DNA of 64,000 bases from positions 50 to 64,049 of the forward strand of contig JADFXX010000012.1 in the NCBI GenBank assembly GCA_015233335.1, read 5' to 3'. The position numbers were made by a program, and so were the translations under genes. The DNA comes from Candidatus Omnitrophota bacterium (GTDB lineage: Bacteria; Omnitrophota; Gorgyraeia; Zapsychrales; Fredricksoniimonadaceae). Under the pieces are notes generated by a model that saw only the letters and a program-made list of their open reading frames with translations, did not search any database and had not been told where the DNA came from. Below, in pieces: positions 1,798 through 31,407 of this stretch (position 1 is the stretch's first letter; each line of letters opens with the position of its first letter).

Positions 1798-3324
1798 TTA
1801 TGGCACATCAAAAATCGATGCATACTTGTCTTGAGCAATTAAACGCAGGGGAATCCTTTCCTGCAAAGCCTTGATCGGCTCAACATATTCGTTCATCCAG
1901 GCCTCATTAAAATAAACCAATAGGCCTTTATTGATTTGAATGTCCCTGTGCATTTGAGACAGCTGGCTTAAATACTTGTCATTCTTAACCCAAGAAAACG
2001 GATTTTTAACAACGGGGATCATGGACGATGTCTTTCCCCCAAGAATATAGATCACCGGAAGTTTATTGCTATAAATAGGCCTTCCCATTGGCGTCGACTT
2101 TACCTTCCAAATGCTGTAAGAAGCCCTGCACGGATCAGTCGTGTATTCATCTCCGAAATAATATTGGTGCGCTAAGCATCTTGCTGATCCGGCCATATAA
2201 AATAAAAAGAAATACGTGACAATGATTTTTCCGATATCCCTTTTAAGTGAAGAAGGATTTTTATACAAGAGATCAGATAGGCCTTTACAAATCATCATTA
2301 AGAAAAGTATATGTACGGGCATAAGGTAGCGCTCCAGACATTTAAGGCGCTCGCTTAAGAGCAGACCCGCATCATAAAATGAGGCTGCGAGCACAAAACA
2401 CAAAATATACAGGCCTATAAATGCTGCCCCAAGGATGGAAAGTTTAGAAAAATTGGCACGTTTCCGGAAAAACAATCTACTCAGACAACAAGCTATCCCT
2501 ATCCCGAATAAAAGTGCCTTTTCATTTGAAGAAACAGGCATCTGCGGGGCAAGAAACCACCCACAAAACTTAGCGGCCAAATCTCTAAAAAACACCAAAT
2601 CAACCGGATGAAAAGCAAAATGTCTCTGCAAGGGAGAATCTTCGATATAGCTCAAGCGGGTATAGAGTAATAAACAAAGACAAGGGGTAAAAACAAAAAC
2701 AGCGGCATGAATACACCTGTTTATAATGCCCTTCCCCTGATTAAGGAATAAAATCCCGAACAGGCCCGTTGCGACCATTGGCACCCCTGCGAATCTCGTC
2801 ATCACAGCTGACGCGGCAATCATGGAACTCAGTATTAAAACAGGCCATCTGGGATTCTTGAGATACTCCATGAATAACAACAGCCATATCAGCATAAAGA
2901 AGATAAACAACGGCTCGCTCATCGCTTTTAAATGGATATCCACAACATCCGGCGCCGATAGCATCAATAATGCCGCAGACAATCCCAGCCACGCAGATCT
3001 GGTATATTTCTTTGTCAGAATGCCGAAAAGCAGGATATTAAGGCCGAAAAGTGCCGAGTTCATTAAGCGTGCCCCTTGCAGGGGGTCCACACCAATCACG
3101 TGCCACCGGGAAAGCACCCATGGAAATAACGGAGGAAAATGGCACAAAAACATCCCTAACATGTCTTTGTTAAGATGCGGGTTCTCAAAAAGGCGGGCCA
3201 TGAGCAGATAAAAAACTGAATCCGCATCTAAGTTAGCTCCCCATAGGGATGTGGCTATAAGAAGCAGACTGACACCTGCAAGCGACAAAATGCCCAGTAA
3301 AATAATAAAAGAATTCTTTTTCAT
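1798..3324 (-). CDS. Polytopic membrane protein, GT-C fold glycosyltransferase-like, copy B
   Basis: 508 aa. Identical to copy A from residue 42 onward, with 9 substitutions in the first 41 residues (loop motif NLDADSVFY). Confidence 0.6.
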   Translation of the reverse strand: MKKNSFIILLGILSLAGVSLLLIATSLWGANLDADSVFYLLMARLFENPHLNKDMLGMFLCHFPPLFPWVLSRWHVIGVDPLQGARLMNSALFGLNILLFGILTKKYTRSAWLGLSAALLMLSAPDVVDIHLKAMSEPLFIFFMLIWLLLFMEYLKNPRWPVLILSSMIAASAVMTRFAGVPMVATGLFGILFLNQGKGIINRCIHAAVFVFTPCLCLLLYTRLSYIEDSPLQRHFAFHPVDLVFFRDLAAKFCGWFLAPQMPVSSNEKALLFGIGIACCLSRLFFRKRANFSKLSILGAAFIGLYILCFVLAASFYDAGLLLSERLKCLERYLMPVHILFLMMICKGLSDLLYKNPSSLKRDIGKIIVTYFFLFYMAGSARCLAHQYYFGDEYTTDPCRASYSIWKVKSTPMGRPIYSNKLPVIYILGGKTSSMIPVVKNPFSWVKNDKYLSQLSQMHRDIQINKGLLVYFNEAWMNEYVEPIKALQERIPLRLIAQDKYASIFDVP

Positions 3325-4307
3325 GCCCTATCTGCCATAGAATCACGGCATCCATTGCGCCTATCTGGATTTTTTGAGAACAACCAGATGTTGCTCTTTT
3401 TCATTTCATTATAGCGACGGCATTGTGTGCAGGGAATGTCCTCCCTTGGTCCTTTTTGGCCTCGCAACATCGCTCTGGCATAATTCATCTTTTCATTATT
3501 TAACACTTCGATCAAATTCTCTTTAAGCGCATTGCCGTAGTCCCCCCAATAATTTCTGGAGCATCCCAAGACTCTGCCGTCGCAATTGATCTGGGGATTG
3601 GCCCATAACTCATAACATGTATTCTTGATAAAATAAGGCTTTTTGTATTTCTCCTGATATTCTTTCCGGCTCACAGCCCCGATTCCTGAAAGCTTCCTGA
3701 CCCGGTCTTTATTTCTGACCGATGAAAAATCACCGTATGGAAGCTTCACCTGAAATCCCATGCCGAGTTTATGGGCCATTTGACGGGCCTTTATAATTTC
3801 ATGTTCATTATGCTCAAATACGATGAACTGCCAATGCAATACCGGCAAGGTGGAGCGGTACTCGGCCTTAAATTCATTGATTTTTTTGATGTTGGCGATG
3901 ACCGTGTCAAAATCGCCGCCTTTCCTATAAATTTTATATGTTGCACGACTGGACCCGTCGATCGAGCAGCTGATAAAACCAAAACGATATTTCACGAGAG
4001 CTTCAAGCATGTCTTCCTTGACTGTGTTGAGATTAACTCCATTACCCGCATTTAAGACAATTTTCTTCTGGTAGGCATACTTTGCGATTCTAAGCAGATC
4101 GCGATTTAAAAAAATTTCACCCCAATTGCTTAATTCGATACTGCGTATCCAGGGATTAGAATCTACGATCTTCTTGAAATTTTCGAATTTAAGGATTTTA
4201 ATTCCGAGTTCCCGGGCTATGCTGCCGTCGGTATTCGGACAGGCAGGACATTTCAGTTGGCAGGCAGTAGAGGCTTCAAGCCTGATTTTAGATGGATTTA
4301 TTTTCAT
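3321..4307 (-). CDS. Radical SAM protein with Cys-rich C-terminal (SPASM/twitch-like) region
   Basis: CQLKCPAC (CX3CX2C) at residues 16-23. C-terminal NCDGRVLGC ... CTQC cysteines. 4-nt overlap with the downstream gene. Confidence 0.8.
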   Translation of the reverse strand: MKINPSKIRLEASTACQLKCPACPNTDGSIARELGIKILKFENFKKIVDSNPWIRSIELSNWGEIFLNRDLLRIAKYAYQKKIVLNAGNGVNLNTVKEDMLEALVKYRFGFISCSIDGSSRATYKIYRKGGDFDTVIANIKKINEFKAEYRSTLPVLHWQFIVFEHNEHEIIKARQMAHKLGMGFQVKLPYGDFSSVRNKDRVRKLSGIGAVSRKEYQEKYKKPYFIKNTCYELWANPQINCDGRVLGCSRNYWGDYGNALKENLIEVLNNEKMNYARAMLRGQKGPREDIPCTQCRRYNEMKKSNIWLFSKNPDRRNGCRDSMADRA

Positions 4308-16873: not shown

Positions 16874-18166
16874 ATGCATGCACCTGCAAGCGCCATAAAT
16901 AAAAAAGCACTGGCTTATTATTTGACCTATCAATTTGTTCCCAAGCCATTTTCCTTAAACCATGCAGGCCCCCCGCGGACTGAGGACTATAAATTCCCCA
17001 GAACGTTAGACCCCAAAAAGACTTTTCGGCATGATGAAACCAGGTTAGCCGAGAACCTATATGCCCTCCTCACCGACATCATCAAAACCTCACTGAAACA
17101 AACAACCGGCCCCATCGGGCTTTTACTCTCCGGCGGGCTGGATTCGACAATATTACTACATCTGCTAAGAAAAAACACACGGAGAAATATTTGTACTATT
17201 TCCGCAGCTTACGATTCAGATCGATCACATCTTAAACTCTGCGCTTCCTTAGCAAAGAAATACAATGCTATTCATCAGGAGCTCATTATCACACCTGCCC
17301 ACCTGCGTCAACTAGCCCGCATTTACTCTCCCGGCTTGGATAACCCCATCGGAGATAACGGTTTATTGGCAAACTATCTCATGTTTAATATGCTGTCTTC
17401 CCGCACAAAATTGATCTATGCCGGTGACGGAGCTGACTGCCTTTTTCACGGCCTTAATATTCATTACTTGGATTTTCTTGATAAGAATTACCTCCATCGC
17501 TTAAAAAAAACAACGGACTTCCCGGATGCGGTCCATCGAAGAATCCTTTTACCGAAGGCTCATTACCCGGACTTTGAACATTACAAATTTGATGAAATAT
17601 TCTTAACAAAAAATGAGGCCCATCAATACCTCGGCATGGACTTTGATCTGAGTGCGCCACTGAGATCCATTACAAAAACGATTAAAACAAATGATCCGAT
17701 CAAGAAAACGATTCTCCTGGATCTAAATTTCCTGGTGAACAATCGCGTAGACTACATCCTTAAATCGGCAGCCGCGAATAAAATCAAAATCATACTCCCC
17801 TATCTCGATTCGGCTTTAATAGATTATGCCCTGCGGATCCCCAGTTCATATTTCATCAAAGATTTGGAACAAAAATACATCCTAAAAAAAGCATTTGAAA
17901 ACGCACTGCCCAAGGAAGTTATCTCTCAAAAAAAAAGAGGGATGACCCCTCCGTTTTTGGATTGGTATCTTAAAAATCGATCTTTTGTATTAAAAACTAT
18001 GCTTAAAGCGACGAAATTAGGCGTAGCCCCCGAATATATCCGTTATCTGACGGATAATATCAACCGCAGCAATCAATACGCTTACGGAATGCGGATCTGG
18101 TTAGTCCTTAACCTGGTCTTATGGTCTGCGGGACAACAAACCCCGGACAAAACCCACTCGATTTAA
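16874..18166 (+). CDS. Asparagine synthetase-like adenylating enzyme (synthetase domain only)
   Basis: PP-loop LLLSGGLDST. There is no N-terminal Cys2 glutaminase domain (starts MHAPAS). It is the only plus-strand gene in the cluster. Confidence 0.7.
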   Translation: MHAPASAINKKALAYYLTYQFVPKPFSLNHAGPPRTEDYKFPRTLDPKKTFRHDETRLAENLYALLTDIIKTSLKQTTGPIGLLLSGGLDSTILLHLLRKNTRRNICTISAAYDSDRSHLKLCASLAKKYNAIHQELIITPAHLRQLARIYSPGLDNPIGDNGLLANYLMFNMLSSRTKLIYAGDGADCLFHGLNIHYLDFLDKNYLHRLKKTTDFPDAVHRRILLPKAHYPDFEHYKFDEIFLTKNEAHQYLGMDFDLSAPLRSITKTIKTNDPIKKTILLDLNFLVNNRVDYILKSAAANKIKIILPYLDSALIDYALRIPSSYFIKDLEQKYILKKAFENALPKEVISQKKRGMTPPFLDWYLKNRSFVLKTMLKATKLGVAPEYIRYLTDNINRSNQYAYGMRIWLVLNLVLWSAGQQTPDKTHSI

Positions 18167-18789: not shown

Positions 18790-18819
18790 CGGAACACTCC
18801 ATTGATCCTCAAAGAAGAC

Positions 18820-19713
18820 CTAAAACCGGCAAAACTCAGACACACACGGATATCCTTGCCCCTTTTCAAAAATGCCTTTACAACGCCGGATTAGATCACT
18901 CTCACATATGGACTTGTTTATCAAATGAATTCCCTCTTTGACCATGACAATTTGGGAATATTTTGTTTCGAGGGAATTGCTTCGCCCCGCTATCTTCAAG
19001 GAATGGACCCCGGCTTGATTTAAACTCCTTATCGCACACAAACCGCAGCTGACCTGTGGTCTATTTAATTTCTTATCAAATACTCCCAATGCCTCCTTCT
19101 TATCTGCGATAACTCCGAGCGTCCGGAAAATGCAACCGGTCGAGGGCTCTTTATGAACACCATGTAAAGCGCCACAACATATGGACGGGATAAACCTGCA
19201 TCTCATATCCAGCACAAAAACACTAAACTTAACACCTTCTGTATTTTGGAAAAGCTTTTTGATCTCCCAAACACTCATTTGTCCTAACAGGTGAATATGA
19301 GTGACTCCCATCCCTTTAAGGAACATCATGGTCTCACTATTAAAAGTCGCGATCAAACAACTGGCCTGCAACTCAAGACCAAGCTTAAGGTCCCTGATCT
19401 TCTTGATCAAAAAAAGGTTGGCTAAAATAACCCCATCCATCCCGATCTCACGCGCGATCAAGGCTTGGTCGACTGACCTTTTTAATGATGGCCTCGGACT
19501 ATTGATCGCTAAGAATACCCGTTTTCCCCTGCGGTGGATCGCCTGCACACTTTTGCGTAATTCTCCAAGACTTTTAAAACAAAACCGCCAGTTGAGGGGC
19601 CTTTCATTGATCGGGGCTTTTTCATCAACAAGTCCGCAATAAAAATCATCCGCCCCAGCATCACAAAGCGGCTCAACTTCATTAAAATTAAGTAAGGGAG
19701 AAAGAATTCTCAT
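18820..19713 (-). CDS. Peptidase U32 family-like protein (UbiU/UbiV/RlhA-type fold suspected)
   Basis: N-terminus MRILSPLLNFNEVEPLCDAGADDFYCGL matches the U32 start pattern. Conserved Cys cluster (CRFIPSICC, SCGLCAIRS). The ATG at 19713 forms an ATGA overlap with the upstream stop. Confidence 0.5.
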   Translation of the reverse strand: MRILSPLLNFNEVEPLCDAGADDFYCGLVDEKAPINERPLNWRFCFKSLGELRKSVQAIHRRGKRVFLAINSPRPSLKRSVDQALIAREIGMDGVILANLFLIKKIRDLKLGLELQASCLIATFNSETMMFLKGMGVTHIHLLGQMSVWEIKKLFQNTEGVKFSVFVLDMRCRFIPSICCGALHGVHKEPSTGCIFRTLGVIADKKEALGVFDKKLNRPQVSCGLCAIRSLNQAGVHSLKIAGRSNSLETKYSQIVMVKEGIHLINKSICESDLIRRCKGIFEKGQGYPCVSEFCRF

Positions 19714-20645
19714 AAGCTCACCCGTGCGCCATGATAGGAAATGCAGCCCCCGCACCCATCCTGCTTGATGATGTTGCGGTGTTTTTCTGCAATGGCAGAG
19801 GCCCAGATCCTGTCAAGACTGTTATTGTGCAAATTGCCGATTCTGGGGAAATGGATACACGTGAAAACATCTGCGTTAGACATTAAAAAAACCCTTTGAG
19901 AAGGAACATCGCAAATACCTTGCCGTACATTCCCTTTTAAGAAACGCACCATTTCGGCAACAAACGCAGCATTTTGATCCCGCAATCGGTACTTTTCCTT
20001 TCCCAACTTTAGAAGATCACGAATAATGGATTTTTTTACTGCGTCATCAAAGGTGAAACTCCGTTGATTGATCCTGTTGGTATAATTTCCTGCATACTCT
20101 GCGAGCTTTGCCCTAAAATCCAGACCATTCTTTTGACAAAACCTGAAAGTAGGGATGATATCCGTGCAATTCACGTGGGTTATGGTAAATTTGATCTTGA
20201 TTTTTACAGACGGATGGGCTTCCCTGACAGCATGGATCGTATTGAGGATCTTATCGCGTGATCGTCCTCTTTGGTGATCATGACAATTGATGCCATCCAT
20301 GCTGATATGAAGTGTGAAATCCGAAGGCAATCTGTTCGAAAAATCATCAAGGTAATGTGCCACGTCCTTGGTCCTAGTCCCATTCGTTGAAATCCCCTTA
20401 AACCAACGGGGATTCTTTGAAAGCAGCGCATCGGTCAGCAGCCACAATTCTTTATGCAAAAACGGCTCTCCGCCGGTCAAGGTAATATCCAGCTTCTCGT
20501 GAAGGCATTTTGCCTCAAGCGCCTTATTGATGATCCCTATAAATAAATCACTTTTGCTCTTTTCTTTCCAGATATCACACATGACACATTTGAGATTGCA
20601 TCTGTTGGTCAATGCGATATTCATATATTTTATTTTATTTTTCAT
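19710..20645 (-). CDS. Radical SAM protein with SPASM-like C-terminus
   Basis: LTNRCNLKCVMC motif at residues 13-24; LTGGEP; C-terminal CIHF...GCGGCISY cysteines. Confidence 0.8.
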   Translation of the reverse strand: MKNKIKYMNIALTNRCNLKCVMCDIWKEKSKSDLFIGIINKALEAKCLHEKLDITLTGGEPFLHKELWLLTDALLSKNPRWFKGISTNGTRTKDVAHYLDDFSNRLPSDFTLHISMDGINCHDHQRGRSRDKILNTIHAVREAHPSVKIKIKFTITHVNCTDIIPTFRFCQKNGLDFRAKLAEYAGNYTNRINQRSFTFDDAVKKSIIRDLLKLGKEKYRLRDQNAAFVAEMVRFLKGNVRQGICDVPSQRVFLMSNADVFTCIHFPRIGNLHNNSLDRIWASAIAEKHRNIIKQDGCGGCISYHGARVSL

Positions 20646-20661
20646 GTGATTTGCTAGATCT

Positions 20662-21924
20662 TCACTCTATAAATACAGTCTTAAACTTCCCTGATTTCTC
20701 TGGCTCTATATGATCTACAAAAACCACCGATAAATGCCCGGTTCCCAATTGTCCGAACCTGTTCTTTATTTCCTGCCCTATTTTATTCCGCTTGCCATTT
20801 GCCGCATAACCCTTTTCCGGCAGTATATTGAAGGTAAAGTCCCCGCTTTCACGGGAATGGCAAGGGCTTTGAATTAACTGATATAAAAGGACACCGGGGA
20901 TATCCATAAGCCGGGCAATATCACGTTCGGAATACAAAATGCCTTTAAAAGAAATGCACTGGCCCTTCCGCCCATAGATTTCGATCTTTTTAGCCGTTCT
21001 CCCGCATCCGCAAGGTTTTGTGATCCATTTGCCAAGGTCCCCTGTCCTGTATCTGATAAGAGGCATCGCAGGATTTTCTAAAGCAGTCACGACGATCTCT
21101 CCGACATCACCATCAAGATACCGGCCTTGATCCACGATCTCAACAAAAACGGAATCTTCAAAAACATGCTTTCCATCTTTCTCACAGCCAAATGCAATGG
21201 GCCCAAATTCTGAGCAGCCATAACAGTCAAAGACTCTGCATTGAAAAATCCTTTCTAAGTATCTTTGAACAGGCAAAGTCAAAAGCTCATAAGTCGAACT
21301 TATCCCCTTCAATGAAAGCCGTTTTTTGTTCATATCCAGATAATACGCCACCGCACATAGATAAAAAGGGTCAGCGTGAACGATCGTCTTCTGGTTATCA
21401 TTTAAGACTGAAGCTGCTTTTTCTAGGACCTCCTGATCCGTAAAAATATGATCAGAAGTCGGTATTTTAACCTGATCAACATAGGCAGGCAGATCACTGG
21501 TGGAGCAGCGGTCCCTGGAACAATGCACCGTTGATAACACGCAATATCTCTGTCCCCATTTCCATTGTGTGTTGATCATGAAGGGAAGGACCATCCTGGC
21601 ATAACGTTCAAATCCCCGCAAATACGCAAAAGGCACTGAATCTGCCAAGGAACCGGACGTCCTATCAAGAACTAAACATGGATGCCCTATATGTTTATTG
21701 CTGATAAGACCGGTATCAATGTTGCCCCTTACTTCTTCCTTGGTCAAGAAGGGGAAAGGAATTGGCGTATTTTTATAAAAGTCACAATTTTCACTCGCAT
21801 CCTTTAGGACCTGGTTGAATTTGCGTTCAACGATGATATCAATTTCTCTTCTTGGCTTAAAAGAGAATTGAACATGGTTCTTAATATACGCTAGCGCTGC
21901 GCTCTCATCGGTCATGTCTGGCAT
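20662..21924 (-). CDS. Adenylate-forming ligase, PaaK/CapK/F390-synthetase-like
   Basis: RTSGS P-loop-like motif, YGCSEFG and RYRTGDLG motifs of ANL enzymes. The track ORF runs to 22113, inside the upstream gene; a start at MPDMTDES (21924) leaves a 20-nt overlap. Confidence 0.7.
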   Translation of the reverse strand: MPDMTDESAALAYIKNHVQFSFKPRREIDIIVERKFNQVLKDASENCDFYKNTPIPFPFLTKEEVRGNIDTGLISNKHIGHPCLVLDRTSGSLADSVPFAYLRGFERYARMVLPFMINTQWKWGQRYCVLSTVHCSRDRCSTSDLPAYVDQVKIPTSDHIFTDQEVLEKAASVLNDNQKTIVHADPFYLCAVAYYLDMNKKRLSLKGISSTYELLTLPVQRYLERIFQCRVFDCYGCSEFGPIAFGCEKDGKHVFEDSVFVEIVDQGRYLDGDVGEIVVTALENPAMPLIRYRTGDLGKWITKPCGCGRTAKKIEIYGRKGQCISFKGILYSERDIARLMDIPGVLLYQLIQSPCHSRESGDFTFNILPEKGYAANGKRNKIGQEIKNRFGQLGTGHLSVVFVDHIEPEKSGKFKTVFIE

Positions 21925-24900
21925 CCTTGGGAATCGATAGAATTTTCTGGGAAAGATATTTTCGTGAACTGAAATTGCTTGCGCAGAATTTCGCATGGCC
22001 GCAACATTTTCCCAAACTCCGTAGAGTTTTTTTCCTGATTCCGGTATATTTTTCCGAGTTCCAAATCTGCCCAAAAGAATCCTTCTGGATATTCCCGACA
22101 GCAAAGCTTTCATTCCTTTCTACAACGCAACAGGGAAACACATTCCCGTCATAATTGATCGAAGCATGGTCGATCGTCCCCAGACAGCCATATCTCTGAT
22201 AAAATGTTTTCCCATAATCCATGGCCAGATAGTTCTTGATCTCCTCTTCAAATTTTTCGGGATGGGCCTGCAATTCCTTAACCACCTTTAAAGGTTCCTC
22301 CAGAACAAGATCCGTAAAAAAGGGACTAAAATCAAAAGCAATGCATTGGTGCATACAATCGCTGATGATCCCGGGAACGATCTTAAAGAAAAACTCCTCC
22401 ATCTGACTACGCGTTAACAATAAAGGCGAAATATCTTTCTTATTTTTGCTGTTCGGCAGGACAAAACTGATCTTAGAAATACCCTGCTGATGGGCAAAGG
22501 AGGGCATCTGCAGCAATGACTTATAGTTAAATTTTGTAACGACAGAATTAGACTCAACGGGAATCGAAGGGTTTTCTGCTTTAATCCATGCAATAACCCG
22601 AACATTACCTGCCCATGAACCCGGTTTCCCCCGGAGTTTGTCATGGATCAATACATCCGGAGAATCGATAGAAACATATAATTTATCTAATCGCGAAAGG
22701 CGCTTGCAATAATCCGCATTCAGGCCGACACAATTGGTTTTAAGACCAACGAAAAAACCGAGGTCCTTGGCATAATCAATGAGGTCCGGTAAATCCTTAC
22801 GCAATGTCGGCTCCTGGCCGTGAAACCGGATTTCCCGGGCCCCGATACTCTTAAGTTCTTTAATGGACTCCAGTATCTGTTTTTTGGAAAGAATCTCTGA
22901 CTTCTTGCGCTTCCAGTTATCACACATGATGCAAAAAGAGTTGCAACCTCCGACCGGATGGATATCCGCCCTAAAAAAACTGGGGTTCCCGTTATTTAAT
23001 ACGGCTTGATAGTTGGAATAATACCGTTCAAATTGACTCATCTCTTTGCCGCTCAGAACAAAATCATATACAGCTTCCAACTTTGCGGTCTCATGAATGA
23101 TGTTAAAGGAGCTCTTGACCTTCTTCAACGCCTGATTCTTCATAGAATCCAGACGTCTGATATTTCTTATCGCAAAACTTGTCTGTTCAACCGCATCGTT
23201 GATATCCGCCTCTTTGAAAAGAATACCCGTCTTTTTGTCTTCTACGATCTCCGGAATACTGCCATGATCGCTTGCGACGACCAAAAGCCCATTGGCCATA
23301 GCCTCCATAATAACACCGGGAACTCCTTCTCGATCCCCATCAGGGGCCGTTAAACTAGGATGCACTAACAGATGGCTTCTTCTCATAAGTTCCAGCACCC
23401 GATCATTAGGCAATTCCCCTAAAAAAGAGATCTTGTCTGCAAAAGGGCTTAAACGAACTGCCTTAAGGACCGCGTCCCTTTGGGGGCCATCACCGACAAT
23501 ATACAATTTTAAATTCTCAAATCTTGTGCAAAGCTTATTAAAAATCTTTATCCCAAATACCGTCCCTTTCTTTTCCACCAACCTCCCCACCATCATAATC
23601 CGCGTCTCTTGTGACACACGCCTTTTTAAAGGGCCCTGTGTCGACAGCCTTATTCCGGAGTGCTGAACAAAAACCTTTTGGGGCAAACAGCCCAGCTTTA
23701 ACAAATCCTTCCGCATAATCTCTGACCTGACCAGAAACATATTCGCCTCGGTGAAAATGGGGCCAAGATTAAATTGTTTCCTTGCATATAGGTCATATCC
23801 TCTAACAGAGACAATCAAGGGCAGGCCCGAAAGGCGCTTTAGGTCTATGAAAAAAATCGCATCTGAGATAAATTCGGCATGTAATATTTTAATGCCTCTG
23901 GCTTTGATCTCGGCTAAGGCCCATTGGAGCATCCGGCCATGCAAATGAGTTTGTTGGAAAGATATGAACGGGTATTCCCGGCCCCATAAACCGGAGAACT
24001 TTTCATTAAACATAAGTTCAAATTTATTCTCAAAGCGGTTGTTATGATCTAAACACAAGACAACGGGTTGATGGCTTTTTAAAAAAGACAGTTCGTCGTA
24101 TATGAATCTTTCTGATAGCGCCAGCCATTGGGCCCGTAAGAATAAAACCTTCGTTTTTCCCTCTGCAAGCTCAATAAGCCGCTTGGCGGCAACAATGTTT
24201 CCTTGGGTCATATCAGGGAAGGCCCTGCGCATTCTTTCTAACTTATGATCCGCGATCAGAGATTTAAGACAGTCCCATATCCCGTCTTTTACGATCACAG
24301 CACAACCCTTATCTTCCAAAGACCTGGCACGGGCGTACTGGTCGTCCTCTTTTCTGTCGACAGGGACCAGCAGTGCCGGTGTCTTTGTAGAAATTATTTC
24401 ATTGATCAAATTGTATCCGGCTGGTGATACGACCAAATCATGCCCGGCCATAATGCCCGGCAGATCAACCTCAAACTTTTTGTAATCAAATCCATGCAAG
24501 TCACACGACCCTTTCTTAAAATAAGGGCCCGTTACGATCGCGACCTGTATCTTTGTATCATCGATACACATTTCTTGCTTTTTAAGCTCTGCAAGAAAAT
24601 CAGATACTTTTGAAAAAAGCTTTGCATGCTGGGGGATATCCGCCCCTGTGGAAAACGTGATAAGGATCCTGAGTGTCCCATCCTTAGTCGCTCTTTTAAT
24701 TTTACCGACAGACCTTACGATGGGCCCGACAAAATGAGTATTCCGGTTCTTTAAAAGAATAGTTCTCTGACGAGGGCTGACCTCCTCCTCACTATGGGGG
24801 ACCAAGACCAAGTCAACCTTATCCAAAAAACCTTTTTGACTTAAATAGTCAAGATTTTGATCCGTGGTATTTCTTAAAACAAAACAAGTTTTGAGCTTGC

Positions 24901-25231
24901 TCTCAAAACAAAAATCAACCAATGGGCGGTTAAACTCGCTATCCATCAGGATCATTTCAGGCTGCTCCCTGCTGATGATCGCCCTTATTCTTAAATAATT
25001 GATCCGCAAATACGATTCATGCGATACCTTCCCGTCTAAAACCATTTTCGTATTAAGAGTAAGTTTATAAACTTTAAATCCTGCCCGGAGGAGAGGCTCA
25101 GGGAATGCGGAATTCGTCACAAAAATAATTTGAGCATCCTTGATCTGAGACAACAGGGCTTTAGCTATCTCCAGAGTCCGGACCAGATGTCCTAACCCCA
25201 CCCCGTCAATGGCATGTATCAATAATTTCAT
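21905..25231 (-). CDS. Tri-domain fusion: MurG/GT28-like glycosyltransferase + GT4 glycosyltransferase + radical SAM/SPASM-like domain
   Basis: Residues 1-355 carry GVGLGHLVRT. Residues 360-725 carry GDGPQR and EGVPGVIME (EX7E). Residues 745-1108 carry GGCNSFCIMC plus C-terminal Cys motifs. Confidence 0.75.
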   Translation of the reverse strand: MKLLIHAIDGVGLGHLVRTLEIAKALLSQIKDAQIIFVTNSAFPEPLLRAGFKVYKLTLNTKMVLDGKVSHESYLRINYLRIRAIISREQPEMILMDSEFNRPLVDFCFESKLKTCFVLRNTTDQNLDYLSQKGFLDKVDLVLVPHSEEEVSPRQRTILLKNRNTHFVGPIVRSVGKIKRATKDGTLRILITFSTGADIPQHAKLFSKVSDFLAELKKQEMCIDDTKIQVAIVTGPYFKKGSCDLHGFDYKKFEVDLPGIMAGHDLVVSPAGYNLINEIISTKTPALLVPVDRKEDDQYARARSLEDKGCAVIVKDGIWDCLKSLIADHKLERMRRAFPDMTQGNIVAAKRLIELAEGKTKVLFLRAQWLALSERFIYDELSFLKSHQPVVLCLDHNNRFENKFELMFNEKFSGLWGREYPFISFQQTHLHGRMLQWALAEIKARGIKILHAEFISDAIFFIDLKRLSGLPLIVSVRGYDLYARKQFNLGPIFTEANMFLVRSEIMRKDLLKLGCLPQKVFVQHSGIRLSTQGPLKRRVSQETRIMMVGRLVEKKGTVFGIKIFNKLCTRFENLKLYIVGDGPQRDAVLKAVRLSPFADKISFLGELPNDRVLELMRRSHLLVHPSLTAPDGDREGVPGVIMEAMANGLLVVASDHGSIPEIVEDKKTGILFKEADINDAVEQTSFAIRNIRRLDSMKNQALKKVKSSFNIIHETAKLEAVYDFVLSGKEMSQFERYYSNYQAVLNNGNPSFFRADIHPVGGCNSFCIMCDNWKRKKSEILSKKQILESIKELKSIGAREIRFHGQEPTLRKDLPDLIDYAKDLGFFVGLKTNCVGLNADYCKRLSRLDKLYVSIDSPDVLIHDKLRGKPGSWAGNVRVIAWIKAENPSIPVESNSVVTKFNYKSLLQMPSFAHQQGISKISFVLPNSKNKKDISPLLLTRSQMEEFFFKIVPGIISDCMHQCIAFDFSPFFTDLVLEEPLKVVKELQAHPEKFEEEIKNYLAMDYGKTFYQRYGCLGTIDHASINYDGNVFPCCVVERNESFAVGNIQKDSFGQIWNSEKYTGIRKKTLRSLGKCCGHAKFCASNFSSRKYLSQKILSIPKDARHDR

Positions 25232-25252
25232 AATGACACCCGAAAATGTATT

Positions 25253-27109
25253 TCAAATAGACTTAAGCTTACAACACTTCTCACAAATAGGCAGAAGCTG
25301 TTGTCTTAAAGAGTTTGCTGTCCTCAAATCGTAGCGATTCCTGATAAACTCGCAGATAATCCTCTCCCCTTTGGCATTAAAACGAAACTGCCCTAACTGC
25401 GCGCAGGTAACCCGTCTTTTTTGGGCCAAATCTTCTGCCAAAAACAGTTTCGTCTGACTTCTGAACAATTCAGGAACATAAGTAATCTTCATCCCATTCC
25501 TCAAATCAGCCCGTTCCAATGACTGGAAGAATTTCATAATGCCTTGATCATCACCGGCTTGCTCTTCAAATTGGGGCCCCTGAAAAATCAGTCGAGGAGC
25601 CGCTATTGAACTCTGCTTTCGAGCTTCCCCTGAAAGAGACATGCCATAAATGATCCGGTGGTCCCGTATGCCGAGATCTGATAAAAGTCCGGAAAGTTTA
25701 ATAATATCTTCCTGATTATCCGCCTTTAGAACAGAGCCTACCCCGACTGAAAAAAAGTCCTTCATCAAATTGAGGGCCCGCATACATTTGTTAAACGTCC
25801 CGCGGCCTCTTTCTTTGTCATGGTAAGTTTCAAGCCCATCCAATGAGAACAAAACGCCTTTAAGCCCGATGCAGCTTTTAAGCCGTTCAACTATGCCGGC
25901 ATTGATCAATGTCCCATTCGTGGTTATCTCGTAAGTTATTGCCTTCTTGTCTAAATGATTCATCATTGCAAAAAACGACTTATTTAAAAAAGGTTCCCCT
26001 CCTATAAAAGAAACATGTGAAGTGTCCGGAAGTCTTCTGATCAGTTTCCGGAAACGGTTTAAATCCATTTCCTCAGGCTTGTGGGACCTTAATCCTTTTT
26101 GAGTGCAGATAGAACAACGCAAGTTACAGCGGTTGATCGTCTCTATATTGGCTATGGTCTTTTCAAAAGGGGCATTCGTATAATCTTTATATACCCCGCA
26201 TAAAAGCATGCAAGACCGGCATTTAAACCGGCCCACGCCGGGAACTTTTTTGGTTTTGATCAAAGGCCTTTGGGGAACACTATTCACAGAAGGTTCTTTA
26301 AGGCAAAAGTAACACTCCCCGGCGGGCATAATGGTCAGGCATTCATTTAAGACCGAACAAGAAGTGGGCATCTTCTTTTTTGCCAGATAAAAGGGAATAT
26401 CCTGATAAAATCTGGCCTTTTTGAAATTCCCCTGTCTGTACATAAGATCCGCCAGCCTGAAACATTGATTTCTGATCACACAAAGCTGTTGTGGCGTGAA
26501 AGATAGATCCAAAGTCTTTCGTGAATTTGTGTAGTTTTTCAAGTTTTCGAAAGGCTTAAAAGAAAACTGACATCCCAATTTCGATGCCAGCGTATAGACC
26601 TTGACTATTTGGTCATAATTATGCGGACTTAACGTCAATTTGATCTCAATCGCCTGATCAGGGAAGCGCCTTTTTACCGCTCGAATCGTATGCACTGTTT
26701 TACGAAAAGACCTCGCCCCTCGCAAGGCATCATTGGTTTCTTCCAATCCATCCAAGCTGATATTTAATTTAAAGTGCAAATGACTGTTTTGTTCAACAAA
26801 CCGTAGTATCCTCTCTTCAAGAAGTCCATTGCTGGTAATACATTTGAAACTTCCCGGATACATCTTCTCGACAAGATTGACGATCGCCTGCAAATCATCC
26901 CGAAGAAACGGTTCGCCTCCGGCAAAAGATATATCGTAATCCCTGCCATACCGCTTATACCCCTGCCTGATCACTTTATCCGAAAGGATCCGGCCGATAT
27001 CATCAAGACAAAGATCCCCACGACGCCCCGCTTTGTTCCACATATCGCAATGGACACAGCGGCCATTACATCGATCAGTAATGATCCAGTTAACAGATTT
27101 TAAGTTCAT
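25253..27109 (-). CDS. Double radical SAM fusion protein
   Basis: Two complete CX3CX2C motifs, TDRCNGRCVHC (residues 11-21) and INRCNLRCSIC (residues 325-335), each followed by a GGEPF glycine motif. Confidence 0.8.
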   Translation of the reverse strand: MNLKSVNWIITDRCNGRCVHCDMWNKAGRRGDLCLDDIGRILSDKVIRQGYKRYGRDYDISFAGGEPFLRDDLQAIVNLVEKMYPGSFKCITSNGLLEERILRFVEQNSHLHFKLNISLDGLEETNDALRGARSFRKTVHTIRAVKRRFPDQAIEIKLTLSPHNYDQIVKVYTLASKLGCQFSFKPFENLKNYTNSRKTLDLSFTPQQLCVIRNQCFRLADLMYRQGNFKKARFYQDIPFYLAKKKMPTSCSVLNECLTIMPAGECYFCLKEPSVNSVPQRPLIKTKKVPGVGRFKCRSCMLLCGVYKDYTNAPFEKTIANIETINRCNLRCSICTQKGLRSHKPEEMDLNRFRKLIRRLPDTSHVSFIGGEPFLNKSFFAMMNHLDKKAITYEITTNGTLINAGIVERLKSCIGLKGVLFSLDGLETYHDKERGRGTFNKCMRALNLMKDFFSVGVGSVLKADNQEDIIKLSGLLSDLGIRDHRIIYGMSLSGEARKQSSIAAPRLIFQGPQFEEQAGDDQGIMKFFQSLERADLRNGMKITYVPELFRSQTKLFLAEDLAQKRRVTCAQLGQFRFNAKGERIICEFIRNRYDLRTANSLRQQLLPICEKCCKLKSI

Positions 27110-27141
27110 CCGAATCCCCCGCCGATGATATTGCAGGAATC

Positions 27142-27172
27142 ACAAACAAAAAAGGCTCCCTTTCGGGAACCT
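27142..27172 (-). terminator. Rho-independent terminator-like hairpin after the 27219..27986 gene
   Basis: Minus strand reads AGGTTCCC-GAAA-GGGAGCCT followed by TTTTTTGTTTGTG. Confidence 0.55.
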
Positions 27173-27218
27173 CTTTATAAAAATCTCGCCCACCACCGCT
27201 TCAATAGTGACACAAATT

Positions 27219-27986
27219 TTACTGCCCATTGGGCTTGGGCGACGGCACCGGGGATGCCGCTTCCGGAGCACTGCATGCTTCGCGCATCTCGCCATTTTCG
27301 ATATCGGCGCAACTGCCGATCCCCTTGATAACTCCAAACCAAGTATAAAAATCTTTTTCTTCCTGCTGTCGCGTCCTTTCTCCCGCAAGAATACGACACC
27401 CGGACAAAGCCAGATACCAATCACTATTCCATTGGGCGCCATATGCACCCACGAAATCTTTTATATAATGGCCACATGAACCCGCGTCTCCCTTTAAAGC
27501 TAAAAGGTATGCCCCCCTTTTGACCAGAATATCTTCCTTGATCTCCGGATTGGACATATGCCCCAGTAATGCCTGCCTTGTGATAGTGCTGGGGGATTTT
27601 ATCAATGAACATAATGACGCCTCTATTTGAGCCTGAACGTCTTTAGTGTATCCCCCACCCAATCCCTCAAAACAGTCCATCGGTTTTTTGCTTGTGTCTG
27701 TTCCTGCACATACCTCCTGGGCACACCGCCAGGATTTAATACCTTTCGCCTCTTTTACACAGATCATATCGTTTTGGCACAGGGACAAATCCCCGTTCAC
27801 CACTTCATACGTCTTAAGGTCCAATTGATCAACGGCCAATTTTCTTGAGACGTCTGCCCCATTGGCAGCGGACATGGCCGGAGTCTGATTTTTAGCAACC
27901 TGTTGGGCCGAACTCACAGCGTTGACACTAGTCATGAACAACACAACAAGAAAAAAATTAAGCACTACGGAAGATCGGAAGCTCAT
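27219..27986 (-). CDS. Secreted Cys-containing hypothetical protein
   Basis: N-terminal signal-like MSFRSSVVLNFFLVVLFMTSVNAVSSAQQ; AGGTG Shine-Dalgarno sequence 7 nt upstream; Pro-rich tail. Confidence 0.6.
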   Translation of the reverse strand: MSFRSSVVLNFFLVVLFMTSVNAVSSAQQVAKNQTPAMSAANGADVSRKLAVDQLDLKTYEVVNGDLSLCQNDMICVKEAKGIKSWRCAQEVCAGTDTSKKPMDCFEGLGGGYTKDVQAQIEASLCSLIKSPSTITRQALLGHMSNPEIKEDILVKRGAYLLALKGDAGSCGHYIKDFVGAYGAQWNSDWYLALSGCRILAGERTRQQEEKDFYTWFGVIKGIGSCADIENGEMREACSAPEAASPVPSPKPNGQ

Positions 27987-28010
27987 AGTTTTACACCTAG
28001 AAGAATAATG

Positions 28011-28277
28011 TTAATAAGATGTATGGGTCGTGATATTGGTATGCTGGGCACAAGTCGTGTTAGTGGCAATAACCGTATTTGAATGTGATGTTGAGTCTGC
28101 TCCGTTAGAAACATTTGTCAGAGCACCGGCTACCCCCAGCGCTGCGACTGTTGACAGGCCAACCTTTAAAATGGTCTCCTTGCTGACAAATCCATCCTCG
28201 TCTTTCATCAACTCACCAAGTGACTTAGTCAGCCCAACCTTTTTCTTTATGGCCTTGCTTTTAATTTTCTTTTTCAT
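28011..28277 (-). CDS. 88-aa candidate modified-peptide precursor (Lys-rich N-terminus, hydrophobic core, His/Thr/Ser/Asn-rich C-terminus)
   Basis: GGAGG 9 nt upstream of the ATG. The start overlaps the 3' end of the rSAM/SPASM gene by 17 nt. C-terminus is SHSNTVIATNTTCAQHTNITTHTSY. Confidence 0.6.
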   Translation of the reverse strand: MKKKIKSKAIKKKVGLTKSLGELMKDEDGFVSKETILKVGLSTVAALGVAGALTNVSNGADSTSHSNTVIATNTTCAQHTNITTHTSY

Positions 28278-29676
28278 CAGGAGCCCCTCCTAGTGTCCAG
28301 CGTTGAAAAATCTCCCCGTATTTATGGCCGCTCAACAGATAAGAAAAAACCGTTCTAAATTGATGTGTCAAAATTTGCTGCAAACGCGAGCCTCCCTTAA
28401 TTATAACATTTTTTTCAACGGCATAATTCACCACAGGATCAACTCCGCGCCAAGGGCTGAAAACAGACCGGTAGTTCCACAAATCAGAACAACCGGAGCT
28501 TAAAAGAAAAAAGAGATTTTCCTTATTAAGCATATCGTCATAGCCTTCTTTCATGATATTCCCCAGCCGGAAAATATCATCCTCGATCATCCTGGCCTCA
28601 TCGGTCGGATAACAGCCCCCGTCCGGCGCATAGACCATGACCGCCCGCCCGGCCCCGCAGGGATTCATCATATCCACATAACCCGGATCCCGCTTATGCA
28701 AAACCTTGGTCAAAATGGTCCTGGCCATGCGTTCGCTGATATGGGTGCCTTCTGTATTGACTTTCATTATATGGGCCATCGCTTTGGTATAAAACACATT
28801 AAACTCTTCTGCCGAATACCCAACATCCTCCCAACTCTGACACGCATATCCTATCTTATTAACCGGCCTTAAGGCGATCTCAGTTTGCCCTAAACGCAGG
28901 TATTCATCAACGATTCTTTCAGGGTGCGCTAGGGAATGCTTTGTGATCGTTGGCAGCATATGAACCTTTCGGCCGAATTTCTTCGAAAAACGCATGATCT
29001 TCTCCACCACCTGAGCATGTGTTCCCCCCCCGCCCGCATCGATCTTGTTTTTATCATGGATATCTGCCGGACCATCCAAAGACGTACAGACATCAACATT
29101 ATGCTCTGCCAAAAAACGCATTTTCTCATCATCCATGAGCAACAAGTTGGTCACAAGGACAATGTTTAGTTTCTTTCCCAGGGTGTTAAACTTGTGCGCA
29201 TGCTCGGTCAAAAATTCAATCGCCGGCCAGTTAAGCAGCGGCTCTCCCCCCTGAAACTCAAGCGTCACGGACTTATTTTGAACATCAAAAAGGTATTGTA
29301 ATACCCGGCTGGCCGTCTGAGTAGACATGTCCTCAGATGAAGACCCTCCCTTGGCATGGCAATAATTACAACGCAAATTACACCTTTTGGTGACAACCGC
29401 GATATGAAGCCCTGTGTCTGAAAATAAATTTGCGTTTAAATTCCTGTACCCTTCCATAACACTGCGAATATTGTCTTCATTAACGATCAGACCCCGTCCT
29501 AACAAACGATTAAATAAAGCCCCTCCCTCCATCACGCGCAGGCTATGCAGCTGCCGGAACTCTTTTTCACTCAAAGCGTCCCAGCAACCCATCATATTAG
29601 TCACTAAATATTTGTTATTGATCTTTTCAGTATTAAACGGAAGAATGGAGGACTGCGCGGTTGTTGTCATATACAA
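28261..29676 (-). CDS. Radical SAM/SPASM peptide-maturase-like protein (anSME/HxsB-like architecture)
   Basis: ~95-aa N-terminal extension (ILPFNTEKINNKYLVTN..LSEKEF), then VTKRCNLRCNYC, FQGGEP, and a C-terminal CGAG...GGCYPTDE Cys region. Confidence 0.75.
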   Translation of the reverse strand: MYMTTTAQSSILPFNTEKINNKYLVTNMMGCWDALSEKEFRQLHSLRVMEGGALFNRLLGRGLIVNEDNIRSVMEGYRNLNANLFSDTGLHIAVVTKRCNLRCNYCHAKGGSSSEDMSTQTASRVLQYLFDVQNKSVTLEFQGGEPLLNWPAIEFLTEHAHKFNTLGKKLNIVLVTNLLLMDDEKMRFLAEHNVDVCTSLDGPADIHDKNKIDAGGGGTHAQVVEKIMRFSKKFGRKVHMLPTITKHSLAHPERIVDEYLRLGQTEIALRPVNKIGYACQSWEDVGYSAEEFNVFYTKAMAHIMKVNTEGTHISERMARTILTKVLHKRDPGYVDMMNPCGAGRAVMVYAPDGGCYPTDEARMIEDDIFRLGNIMKEGYDDMLNKENLFFLLSSGCSDLWNYRSVFSPWRGVDPVVNYAVEKNVIIKGGSRLQQILTHQFRTVFSYLLSGHKYGEIFQRWTLGGAPDEKEN

Positions 29677-29684
29677 AAGGTCTG

Positions 29685-30131
29685 TTATTTCTTATGTCTA
29701 GATGCTGTCTTGGGCTTCGCGGCCCCCTGCTTGTCCTCTGCCTCAAGCTCCTTGATCAAATTCTCGATCTCTTTTTCTTCGGCTTCTTTGACAATGGACG
29801 GCGATGCTGAAAAAAGGGCCCGCTGCAGCAAGGTTTTCATGTTATCTGCGTTGGTCTTCAAACTGCTAAAATAATGAGCATAATTAAGCAATTCATCACA
29901 AAATTCCAGCGCCAGCTTCTCTATGTCTTGATCTTTACTTTTAGGCTTAAGCCACGCCGCGACTAAATCCTTCTTCTCCTCTTCTAACCTGACATGCGCC
30001 CGGTCCATAAAAGCATAACCGGCAGAATGGACCGACTGTAATGGATATACTTTCAAATCAACCGCAACCTTGATCCAGTCATTAGCTTTTTCAAATTGGG
30101 CTTTCATATGAACCTCTAAATTTCCTCTCAA
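29685..30131 (-). CDS. Small helical protein, possibly HxsD-like
   Basis: First gene of the operon. IKVAVDLKVYPLQSVHSAGYAF and FCDELLNYAHY faintly recall the HxsD (LLNDYxLRE) family; memory-based only. Confidence 0.3.
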   Translation of the reverse strand: MRGNLEVHMKAQFEKANDWIKVAVDLKVYPLQSVHSAGYAFMDRAHVRLEEEKKDLVAAWLKPKSKDQDIEKLALEFCDELLNYAHYFSSLKTNADNMKTLLQRALFSASPSIVKEAEEKEIENLIKELEAEDKQGAAKPKTASRHKK

Positions 30132-30183
30132 TAGATTTAAATCTTCCCCCTGTTACTTTCTAAATTATACACATTCTCAAATA

Positions 30184-31260
30184 CTATACAACGGTTTTCT
30201 CTCCTTGGTTTCCCGACAAAAAATCCAGATGCCCCAATGGCCTGTTCTTTTGGGTAAATTTGGCAATTCTGGCCATCATGCGCACCGCCTCCAGGGGATA
30301 TTCCCCTATAGCTGTTTCTTCGGATAGCATGACGGCATCTGTTCCATCTAGAATGGCGTTCGCCACATCCGTGACCTCTGCGCGTGTGGGACGCACATTC
30401 TGGACCATTGATTCGAGCATTTGGGTGGCGGTAATAACCGGCTTCCCCATGATATTAGCCTTCTGAATAAGTTTTTTTTGAATAATAGGAACCTCTTCAA
30501 TGGGGACTTCGACGCCCAGGTCTCCCCGGGCGATCATGATCGCATCCGCCGCTTTAAGTATTTTATCAAAATTCTCAACTGCCCCCTGTCGCTCGATCTT
30601 GGCGACCAAATAAACAGTCTTGCCCCTTTTTTTAGCAAATTGCCGCACTTGATCGATATCTTTAGCACTCTCTATAAAAGAAAGACCAAAGATATTGACC
30701 CCTTGCTTTAGGGCAAAATCAACTATTTGTAAATCTCTCTCTGTGATCGGATTGATACGCAGTTTTGCTCCGGGCAAATTAAGCCCTTTATGCGAGAGAA
30801 GTTTCCCTCCTGTAATGACCTTGCAAAACACGTCATGATCATCTGTTTTGATCACTTTTAGCTGGATAAATCCATCATTAAGATAAATGATACTGCCCCG
30901 GGAAACCGCCCTTGAAAGCCGTTTATATTCAACAGGAATCAGGGTATCTGTGCCTACGACATTTCTTGTCGTAAGTACAATGTCCTCATGTTTTTTAAGG
31001 ATAACCGCATCATTGAGAAGACTCCCGACGCGTATTTTGACACCGGGCAAATCAACGATAATACTGACCGGACGGCCTATTTTGCCCGCGGCCGCACGGA
31101 TATTGCGGATGTTTTCGGCATGCTCCCCAAAGTCACCATGGGAAAAATTAAGACGGGCCACATTCATTCCGCTTTTGATCAAGCCTTCAAGCTTGAAAGG
31201 CGCCCGGCAAGCAGGGCCGATCGTACAGACAACTCTTGTTTTATGGGGAGATTGTTTCAT
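30184..31260 (-). CDS. pyk: Pyruvate kinase, short form lacking the C-terminal regulatory domain
   Basis: [38 protein letters not shown] motifs. Only 358 aa, ending soon after the A-domain. Confidence 0.9.
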
Positions 31261-31407
31261 ATATTTTCTTAACGCAATATCCGCTTAAATGGCAAACCGG
31301 CAAGTTCCTTTCTTATATATACTATAATGAATTTAAAACCTATAACAAGAAAATTTAGCCCCTCTACGCCACACCTTGAACTTCCCCCAACATAGGATAT
31401 ACTTGAA

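Follow-up and report, generated by a model that had tools for sequence, protein, structure and literature searches.

Can a single polypeptide hold two working radical S-adenosylmethionine (SAM) active sites, and what would it do with them? A radical SAM (rSAM) enzyme almost always has a single SAM-cleaving site in its chain; the textbook exception is FbiC. The question is raised by a 64,000-nucleotide stretch of the Candidatus Omnitrophota bacterium contig JADFXX010000012.1 (assembly GCA_015233335.1; hereafter the window), which encodes a 618-aa protein in which one rSAM core follows another. The observation of two rSAM modules in one chain, made in an initial annotation of the DNA, is confirmed and lies far beyond chance. 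We consider it rather likely that the protein is a single chain with two complete, independently competent rSAM modules that carries out two radical steps in a conserved pathway of the glycan or glycoconjugate type.

Two radical SAM modules in one open reading frame

The initial annotation had placed a 618-aa open reading frame (ORF) at positions 25253-27109; interval and length were borne out, and the strand was corrected to minus. The 618 codons run uninterrupted from an ATG at 27109 to a stop codon at 25253-25255, and a plus-strand reading of 25253..27109 was ruled out, as stops interrupt that frame throughout. At 100% identity the protein matches P0001, deposited at NCBI as 'radical SAM protein [Candidatus Omnitrophica bacterium]'. 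Its parts are laid out as follows, with the basis of each assignment in brackets.

25253..27109, minus: whole gene for the 618-aa two-module radical SAM protein (ORF list and translation)
26360..27109, minus: module 1 radical SAM core and helical bridge, residues 1-250, with GGE at 64-66 and SLDG at 118-121 (PF04055; alternating beta/alpha in the structural model)
27047..27070, minus: CX3CX2C motif 1 (C14, C18, C21), the radical SAM [4Fe-4S] site of module 1 (invariant in 29 of 29 aligned members)
26174..26359, minus: module 1 auxiliary-cluster domain of twitch/SPASM type, residues 251-312, C251-X12-G264-X4-C269 ... C297-X2-C300-X3-C304 (conservation, structural model, Pfam SPASM match in homologue P0022)
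25610..26173, minus: module 2 radical SAM core, residues 313-500, with GGE at 370-372 and SLDG at 422-425 (PF04055 on the C-terminal half)
26105..26128, minus: CX3CX2C motif 2 (C328, C332, C335), the radical SAM [4Fe-4S] site of module 2 (C332 and C335 in 29 of 29, C328 in 28 of 29)
25256..25414, minus: module 2 auxiliary-cluster domain of twitch type, residues 566-618, C569-X11-G581-X4-C586 ... C609-X2-C612-C613 (conservation, structural model)

Both cysteine motifs read by the initial annotation, CNGRCVHC at residues 14-21 and CNLRCSIC at residues 328-335, are present in the translation, and each half has its own GGEPFL (at 64 and 370) and its own SLDGLE block (118-123 and 422-427). The suggestion that both halves are full AdoMet radical cores also holds. 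When residues 1-310 and 311-618 were scanned separately, each half alone exceeded the gathering score of the Pfam Radical_SAM model (PF04055, 29.5 bits), the N-terminal half at 59.2 bits (E=7e-16) and the C-terminal half at 70.7 bits (E=2e-19). Aligned with each other, the two halves share 29% identity over 174 residues (E=9e-12).

An AlphaFold2 (AF2) model of the 618-aa protein was built from an alignment of 29 full-length members that are 36-78% identical to the query (alignment A1), and reached a predicted local distance difference test score (pLDDT) of 91.0 and a predicted template modelling score (pTM) of 0.89. The model contains two beta/alpha cores of alternating strands and helices, each followed by a cysteine domain made of a hairpin and a helix. 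Foldseek searches of the PDB with this model returned SkfB, SuiB, BlsE, anSME, viperins, DesII and MoaA, one module being covered per match with a query TM-score (TMq) of at most 0.37; no solved structure in the PDB matched the two-module arrangement, and none covered more than about half of the model. At the sequence level, the best solved-structure match of module 2 is BlsE (7vob, E=2e-16, positions 322-486), followed by MoaA (1e-9) and viperins (5e-8).

Between the two cores, the initial annotation had seen a cysteine-rich linker. The cysteines are there (C251 to C304), but the stretch is better described as an auxiliary Fe-S domain of the twitch/SPASM type that belongs to module 1; module 2 ends in a counterpart of its own. 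Both cysteine domains fit the SPASM/twitch pattern of CX9-15GX4C with a beta-hairpin followed by CX2C: in module 1, AF2 places a hairpin at 257-267 between C251 and C269, and in module 2 strands 567-569 and 575-577 are followed by a helix (595-603) ahead of the CxxCC. The full seven-cysteine SPASM motif for two auxiliary clusters (CX9-15GX4C-gap-CX2CX5CX3C-gap-C) was found in neither domain; each has five conserved cysteines, and CX2CX3C and CX2CC stand where CX2CX5CX3C would be expected. With the Pfam SPASM model (PF13186, cut-off 21.5 bits), homologue P0022 reaches 26.9 bits in the corresponding region, and precomputed PF13186 assignments exist for P0021, P0023, P0024 and P0039. Because five conserved cysteines cannot ligate two cubanes and instead agree with one auxiliary cluster per domain, the state found in twitch enzymes (among them BtrN, whose ligand pattern was reportedly described by Goldman et al. 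in 2013 and Grell et al. in 2015), we read each as a single-cluster, twitch-like domain. With one auxiliary cluster per module, motifs and predicted topology together lead us to expect four [4Fe-4S] clusters per chain, two of the radical SAM kind and two auxiliary.

Conservation of both modules across a rare family

A fused protein of this kind could arise trivially if a sequencing or assembly error had shifted the frame, or a stop codon had been lost, between two neighbouring rSAM genes. Separately encoded modules do exist: in one locus (L023) the N and C genes lie 2 nt apart in different frames, and in another (L019) a C-module follows an in-frame stop. Against this explanation, the same fused frame recurs in about 40 independent full-length clusters drawn from NCBI, ENA, JGI and Logan assemblies (596-678 aa, 33-78% identity, 99-100% coverage), the junction residues K308, Y310, N321 and E323 are invariant in alignment A1, and the AF2 pTM of the full chain describes one compact two-module fold. 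We regard an artefact as vanishingly improbable; the two-module rSAM and auxiliary-domain fusion is real, and the prospect that a frameshift had joined two genes, contemplated in the initial annotation, falls away.

That annotation had left open whether the protein performs two sequential radical steps or pairs a catalytic half with a degenerate, scaffolding half. Conservation bears directly on this choice. In module 1, residues C14, C18, C21, G64-G65-E66, S118, D120, G121, C251, G264, C297, C300 and C304 are invariant across alignment A1; in module 2, the same is true of C332, C335, G370-G371-E372, S422, D424, G425, C569, G581, C586, C609, C612 and C613. Thus the module 2 auxiliary domain keeps all five cysteines and its glycine in 29 of 29 members, and the module 1 auxiliary domain departs from this only at C269. 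This residue and C328 are present in 28 of 29, the exceptions being C269Y in P0003 and C328S in P0005. Module 1 has 34 invariant positions and module 2 has 36, and mean pairwise identity is 51% and 45%, respectively. The identities of the two halves are tightly correlated (r=0.93), and the halves co-evolve.

A pseudo-rSAM half, serving as a scaffold, a substrate-binding domain or an electron relay beside one catalytic module, would find a precedent in the pseudo-SAM/SPASM proteins, a named NCBIfam family whose model TIGR04347 is among the weak matches of our protein, and the single deviants P0005 and P0003 could be cited in its favour. Both sets of CX3CX2C, GGE and SxDG motifs are nevertheless kept in at least 28 of 29 members across bacteria and archaeal-labelled metagenome-assembled genomes (MAGs), and the halves are nearly equally conserved, both scoring well above the Pfam threshold. 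As the motifs of both halves are retained and their conservation is nearly equal, two SAM-cleaving sites are favoured over a degenerate scaffold, which we consider very unlikely. Both sites are accordingly predicted from their motifs to be active, in steps that may be sequential or parallel.

The initial annotation had called the architecture unusual, and a profile search agrees: the whole two-module profile has only about nine matches among 1.84 billion 50%-identity representatives (P0023, P0025, P0016, P0022, P0031, P0121, P0039, P0030 and P0040). Among approximately 185,000 GTDB species, represented by one genome each and scanned with two peptide patterns plus tblastn, the family occurs in 11 genomes, a lower bound. 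Seven of these are labelled Omnitrophota, three Nanoarchaeota and one Aenigmatarchaeota. Family members and neighbouring genes for fusions of glycosyltransferase (GT) and rSAM domains sit on contigs deposited as Nanoarchaeota or Aenigmatarchaeota MAGs (L001/L010, which is JANQNH010000004.1, and L009, L011 and L016). A tRNA scan of the flanks of the family genes on these DPANN-labelled contigs found no tRNAs and so was uninformative on archaeal origin; cross-domain transfer between ultra-small organisms and mis-binning are both possible explanations of these occurrences.

The fusion is the native state of the family and obligate in most members. Separate modules take several forms. A standalone N-module homologue (46% identity) is overlapped by an unrelated rSAM/SPASM gene in L021/L022, and a standalone C-module homologue (40% identity) follows another rSAM/SPASM gene in L019/L020; neither pair of loci was accepted as a true split, the standalone modules being paired with unrelated rSAM/SPASM genes. 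P0041-P0043 were likewise rejected as split forms, because they are truncated gene calls that start inside the module 1 auxiliary domain. The neighbouring N and C genes of L023 may be a genuine split, a frameshift also being possible on this short, 1.7-kb contig.

Other members extend the architecture. A third rSAM module is present in P0012, P0013, P0016 and P0029 (loci L005 and L009); PF04055 matches three stretches of P0012 and of P0029, and P0012 also contains a full SPASM domain. The third modules of P0012, P0013 and P0016 best match a 328-aa rSAM/SPASM protein encoded elsewhere in the window (30-32% identity, E=1e-28 to 1e-32), with matches to any other rSAM of the window reaching at most 1e-11, which provides a Rosetta-stone link across a 30-kb gene train. 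Distant relatives often have two to four CX3CX2C motifs per chain (up to four in P0162, P0187, P0208 and P0239). In P0022 and P0030 the chain continues into tails of about 330 aa that are homologous to each other (E=1e-13). The P0030 tail has a sub-threshold match to the aminoglycoside phosphotransferase (APH) family (19.1 bits against 23.2) and the P0022 tail has a catalytic-loop-like motif, HSDFQSEN; BLAST found no similarity between these tails and a separate APH-like gene of L001, and we assign them as kinases tentatively. Two further proteins are noted here as observations in their own right. P0018 (960 aa, on an 18.7-kb Logan contig) has a segment of about 340 aa resembling SNF2/helicase proteins inside module 2, after which the C-terminal part resumes; this could be a genuine insertion or a chimeric assembly. 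In L007, a 1468-aa multi-rSAM/SPASM protein is encoded directly upstream of the family member.

A gene train rich in radical SAM enzymes and glycosyltransferases

The gene lies within a minus-strand train that runs from 29676 to 241 and holds at least 12 rSAM domains in about 30 kb: HxsB, the two of the target, those of a 1108-aa fusion, of 311-aa and 328-aa rSAM/SPASM proteins and of a 313-aa rSAM protein, three in B12-binding proteins and two in related B12-class-like proteins. The family loci are exceptional in their rSAM density and also hold GT-rSAM fusions. The genes around and downstream of the target are as follows.

27149..27176, minus: terminator-like hairpin, 12-bp stem and T run, in the 109-nt gap between a gene for a 255-aa secreted protein and the target (best-scoring site in 25000-31500, consensus match only)
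21905..25231, minus: GT28-GT4-radical SAM-SPASM fusion, 1108 aa, next gene downstream after a 21-nt gap (Pfam Glyco_tran_28_C, Glycos_transf_1, Radical_SAM, SPASM)
20662..22113, minus: CapK/PaaK-like adenylate-forming ligase (NCBIfam DVU_1553-family and PaaK models, sub-threshold)
19710..20645, minus: radical SAM/SPASM protein, 311 aa (Pfam Radical_SAM and SPASM)
16874..18166, plus: AsnB-like amidotransferase, synthetase domain only (Pfam Asn_synthase, 152 bits)
8022-9371, 9341-10624 and 15326-16753, minus: B12-binding rSAM proteins
6546-8000 and 11509-12819, minus: related B12-class-like rSAM proteins
14364-15305, minus: rSAM protein, 313 aa
12832-14367, minus: NodU-like carbamoyltransferase
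10637-11512, minus: A24 peptidase-like gene
3321..4307, minus: radical SAM/SPASM protein, 328 aa, orthologous to the third module in P0012, P0013 and P0016
241-1767 and 1798-3324, minus: tandem ArnT/PMT_2-like GT-C genes, 508 aa each

We compared 18 family loci, seven from exact-protein look-ups and 11 from the GTDB scan. A homologue of the approximately 310-aa rSAM/SPASM protein is present in all 18, usually as the next gene after the family member, and a homologue of the rSAM part of the GT fusion flanks the family member in 17. CapK-like ligase and AsnB-like homologues follow in 14 and 11 of the 18 loci, respectively. The GT28-GT4-rSAM-SPASM fusion is the most constant partner of the family and the approximately 310-aa rSAM/SPASM protein another constant one. 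In several loci (L002, L005 and L007) about 20 nt at the start of the family member are shared with a GT28-rSAM/SPASM gene, an overlap that suggests translational coupling.

From these data, the pathway served by the two-module protein most likely tailors a sugar or a glycoconjugate, such as a surface glycan or glycolipid, rather than a peptide. A small-molecule or glycan substrate is favoured because the first CX3CX2C motif starts at residue 14, which leaves no room for an N-terminal RiPP recognition element (RRE) or other leader-binding domain (RiPP, ribosomally synthesized and post-translationally modified peptide), because the family is linked to a kinase-like domain, and because the structural relatives of module 2 (BlsE, MoaA, viperins) act on nucleoside, nucleotide or sugar substrates. 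The constant neighbours, namely glycosyltransferases, a ligase and an amidotransferase, point the same way, and the train also holds the ArnT/PMT_2-like GT-C enzymes and the NodU-like carbamoyltransferase.

Several points weigh against this interpretation. The peptide maturases SkfB, SuiB, WgkB and StsB are equally close in fold and are found among the close sequence neighbours as well, which keeps a peptide substrate conceivable, and an Hxs-like trio lacking HxsC lies just upstream in the window and in the closest relatives. No NCBIfam equivalog model reaches its cut-off on the 618-aa protein, the best scoring 124.4 bits against 650. For the auxiliary domains, PF13186 stays below threshold on the protein itself (9.8 bits), and with five conserved cysteines in each domain, neither the precise ligation nor even the type of cluster is certain.

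The Hxs-like block gives rise to a rival, peptide-based explanation. It consists of three minus-strand genes.

29685-30131, minus: HxsD-like (HxsD model, 29.3 bits against a cut-off of 50)
28261-29676, minus: HxsB (TIGR03978, 372 bits against a cut-off of 370)
28011-28277, minus: 88-aa peptide with an HxS/HxT-repeat tail ending in ...STSHSNTVIATNTTCAQHTNITTHTSY (HxsA3 model, 20.5 bits against a cut-off of 65)

The gene order is HxsD-like, HxsB, 88-aa peptide, 255-aa secreted protein, hairpin and target; HxsB is the one gene of the cluster to meet an NCBIfam equivalog threshold. In published HXS antiphage systems, 99.7% of which are from Pseudomonadota, the order is D-B-C-A, with HxsB adjoining HxsC (PMC13128918). 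The target could therefore stand in for HxsC and, together with HxsB and HxsD, mature the 88-aa peptide into a RiPP-like or HXS-defence-like effector, with one modification per module. The HxsB score, the HxsD-like gene and the HxsA3-like peptide 0.9-3 kb upstream on the same strand speak for this possibility, as do the peptide maturases among the nearest NCBIfam matches and the recurrence of the trio near the homologue in L001/L010, L003 and L008. HxsC was not found anywhere in the 64-kb window, while canonical HXS always pairs HxsB with this second rSAM (PMC13128918).

Yet most of the 18 loci lack an HxsB or HxsD homologue within 10 kb on either side and keep their GT-rSAM partners: the trio occurs in four independent places, namely the window, L001/L010, L003 and L008, of which L003 and L008 are closest relatives. 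On the Nanoarchaeia-labelled contig of L001/L010 the Hxs block is on the opposite strand, and in the window the terminator-like hairpin stands between the two blocks, suggesting that the target starts a transcription unit separate from the Hxs and secreted-protein genes. The target has neither an RRE nor an N-terminal extension, and no NCBIfam model exceeds its 124 bits on it, against an HxsC cut-off (TIGR03977) of 267.9. With the D-B-C-A order also absent and no steady co-occurrence, identity with HxsC was rejected. The trio is accessory to the family locus, and we judge a role as HxsC substitute unlikely.

A second explanation would make the protein a viperin-like, nucleotide-modifying defence enzyme whose two modules produce modified nucleotides, linked to kinases as in pVip-kinase systems. 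PADLOC pVip models match both modules (1.4e-31), viperins are among the PDB matches, some members carry or neighbour an APH/kinase-like domain, and the HXS-like defence trio adjoins. The pVip matches, though, cover the generic core only (profile positions 3-125 of 257) and are obtained by every other rSAM of the cluster too, and the NCBIfam viperin_w_prok model scores 91.1 bits against a cut-off of 180, so that membership in the viperin/pVip family was rejected. The genes that regularly accompany the family encode glycosyltransferases, a ligase and an amidotransferase rather than defence proteins, and this explanation too seems highly improbable.

Under the two-step glycan or glycoconjugate reading that we prefer, each module would bind SAM at its own [4Fe-4S] cluster, generate its own 5'-deoxyadenosyl radical and abstract a hydrogen atom. 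The auxiliary clusters might, as they do in BtrN, anSME or MoaA, transfer electrons or ligate the substrate. The modules could act one after the other on a single intermediate, or carry out the same reaction in parallel at two positions. The substrate would be a sugar-linked intermediate that the neighbouring GT-rSAM proteins make or hold, and the partners in the pathway would be the GT-rSAM/SPASM fusions, the approximately 310-aa rSAM/SPASM protein, the CapK-like carboxylate-adenylating ligase and the AsnB-like amidotransferase. If both sites act on a sugar-linked substrate, the family would open a new area of radical carbohydrate tailoring. It would also make it practicable to study how a single protein coordinates two radical active sites and four Fe-S clusters.

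We also raise, tentatively and as a proposal that we doubt more than we believe, a broader scheme in which the protein is the core of an undescribed 'radical glycan' pathway. An obligately fused enzyme with two sites, or three in some lineages, would work with the GT-rSAM/SPASM fusions as a quasi-assembly line, yielding a heavily radical-tailored glycoconjugate whose sugars are C-C or C-O cross-linked, epimerised, decarboxylated or methylated. It would sit on the surface of ultra-small cells that depend on a host, and the whole module would have been exchanged between Omnitrophota and DPANN archaea. That the family is confined to Omnitrophota and DPANN-labelled genomes hints at cross-domain gene exchange and at a surface structure tied to an episymbiotic lifestyle.

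Some further features of the window are recorded here. The CapK-like ORF (483 aa from its first ATG) overlaps the ORF of the 1108-aa fusion by 209 nt; its orthologue in L003 has 407 aa, so the real start of the 20662-22113 ORF is probably an internal codon. The two ArnT/PMT_2-like genes share 98% identity and differ solely within their first 40 or so residues; they stem either from a tandem duplication that is very recent or from an error of assembly. On the minus strand at 18163-19755, within the same train, a U32-family protein with weak similarity to UbiU/TrhP (53.8 bits against 440) is followed by a cysteine-containing 208-aa protein for which no family match was found; the pair is reminiscent of the UbiU/UbiV O2-independent hydroxylase. 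Two large adjoining ORFs of 1047 and 1662 aa occupy 55215-63347 on the minus strand; very long proteins have been reported from Omnitrophota (bioRxiv 10.64898/2026.06.07.730766).

Comparison with known multi-site and SPASM/twitch enzymes

Our literature search, which covered the family, multi-rSAM proteins and GT-rSAM fusions in Omnitrophota, yielded only a statement on FbiC and a general Omnitrophota genome survey, with nothing on the family itself and no published chemistry for GT-rSAM fusions. FbiC, the FO synthase, joins CofG and CofH in one polypeptide. Each of its two radical SAM domains makes a 5'-deoxyadenosyl radical of its own, so that one pathway intermediate undergoes two steps, and in archaea the enzyme occurs as separate polypeptides (PMC11917521). 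The present family likewise has two radical SAM domains per polypeptide and also occurs as standalone or split module homologues. In contrast to FbiC, its modules best match SPASM/twitch enzymes, each carries an auxiliary domain, and the genomic context is one of glycosyltransferases and not of F420 genes. CofG, CofH and FbiC models were absent from the best 25 NCBIfam matches of the whole protein and of either half. Judged by these matches, FbiC is the closest functional precedent for a two-rSAM enzyme, but not a relative.

A second comparison is with the MJ0619-type methanopterin methylase, which reportedly (Allen and colleagues, 2014) has two CX3CX2C motifs in one chain; this enzyme belongs to another family and is concerned with cofactor methylation in methanogens. 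Like HxsC, the target is an rSAM protein whose gene lies close to those for HxsB, HxsD and an HxS-type peptide. It differs in that it does not adjoin HxsB, two genes and a hairpin lying between them, and in having two modules with auxiliary domains.

The closest likeness is to the SPASM/twitch enzymes BtrN, BlsE, MoaA, anSME, SkfB and SuiB, which have the same layout of core, CX9-15GX4C hairpin and CX2C as each of our modules. The solved examples are, however, all single-module proteins, at 13-21% identity, and no named family threshold was reached. Multi-rSAM enzymes and twitch/SPASM enzymes thus both have precedents; what is undescribed is their combination, with four predicted clusters per chain, GT-rSAM partners and a distribution over Omnitrophota and DPANN-labelled genomes. 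The family is a second lineage, unrelated to FbiC, in which two and sometimes three complete rSAM and auxiliary modules are fused and co-evolve.

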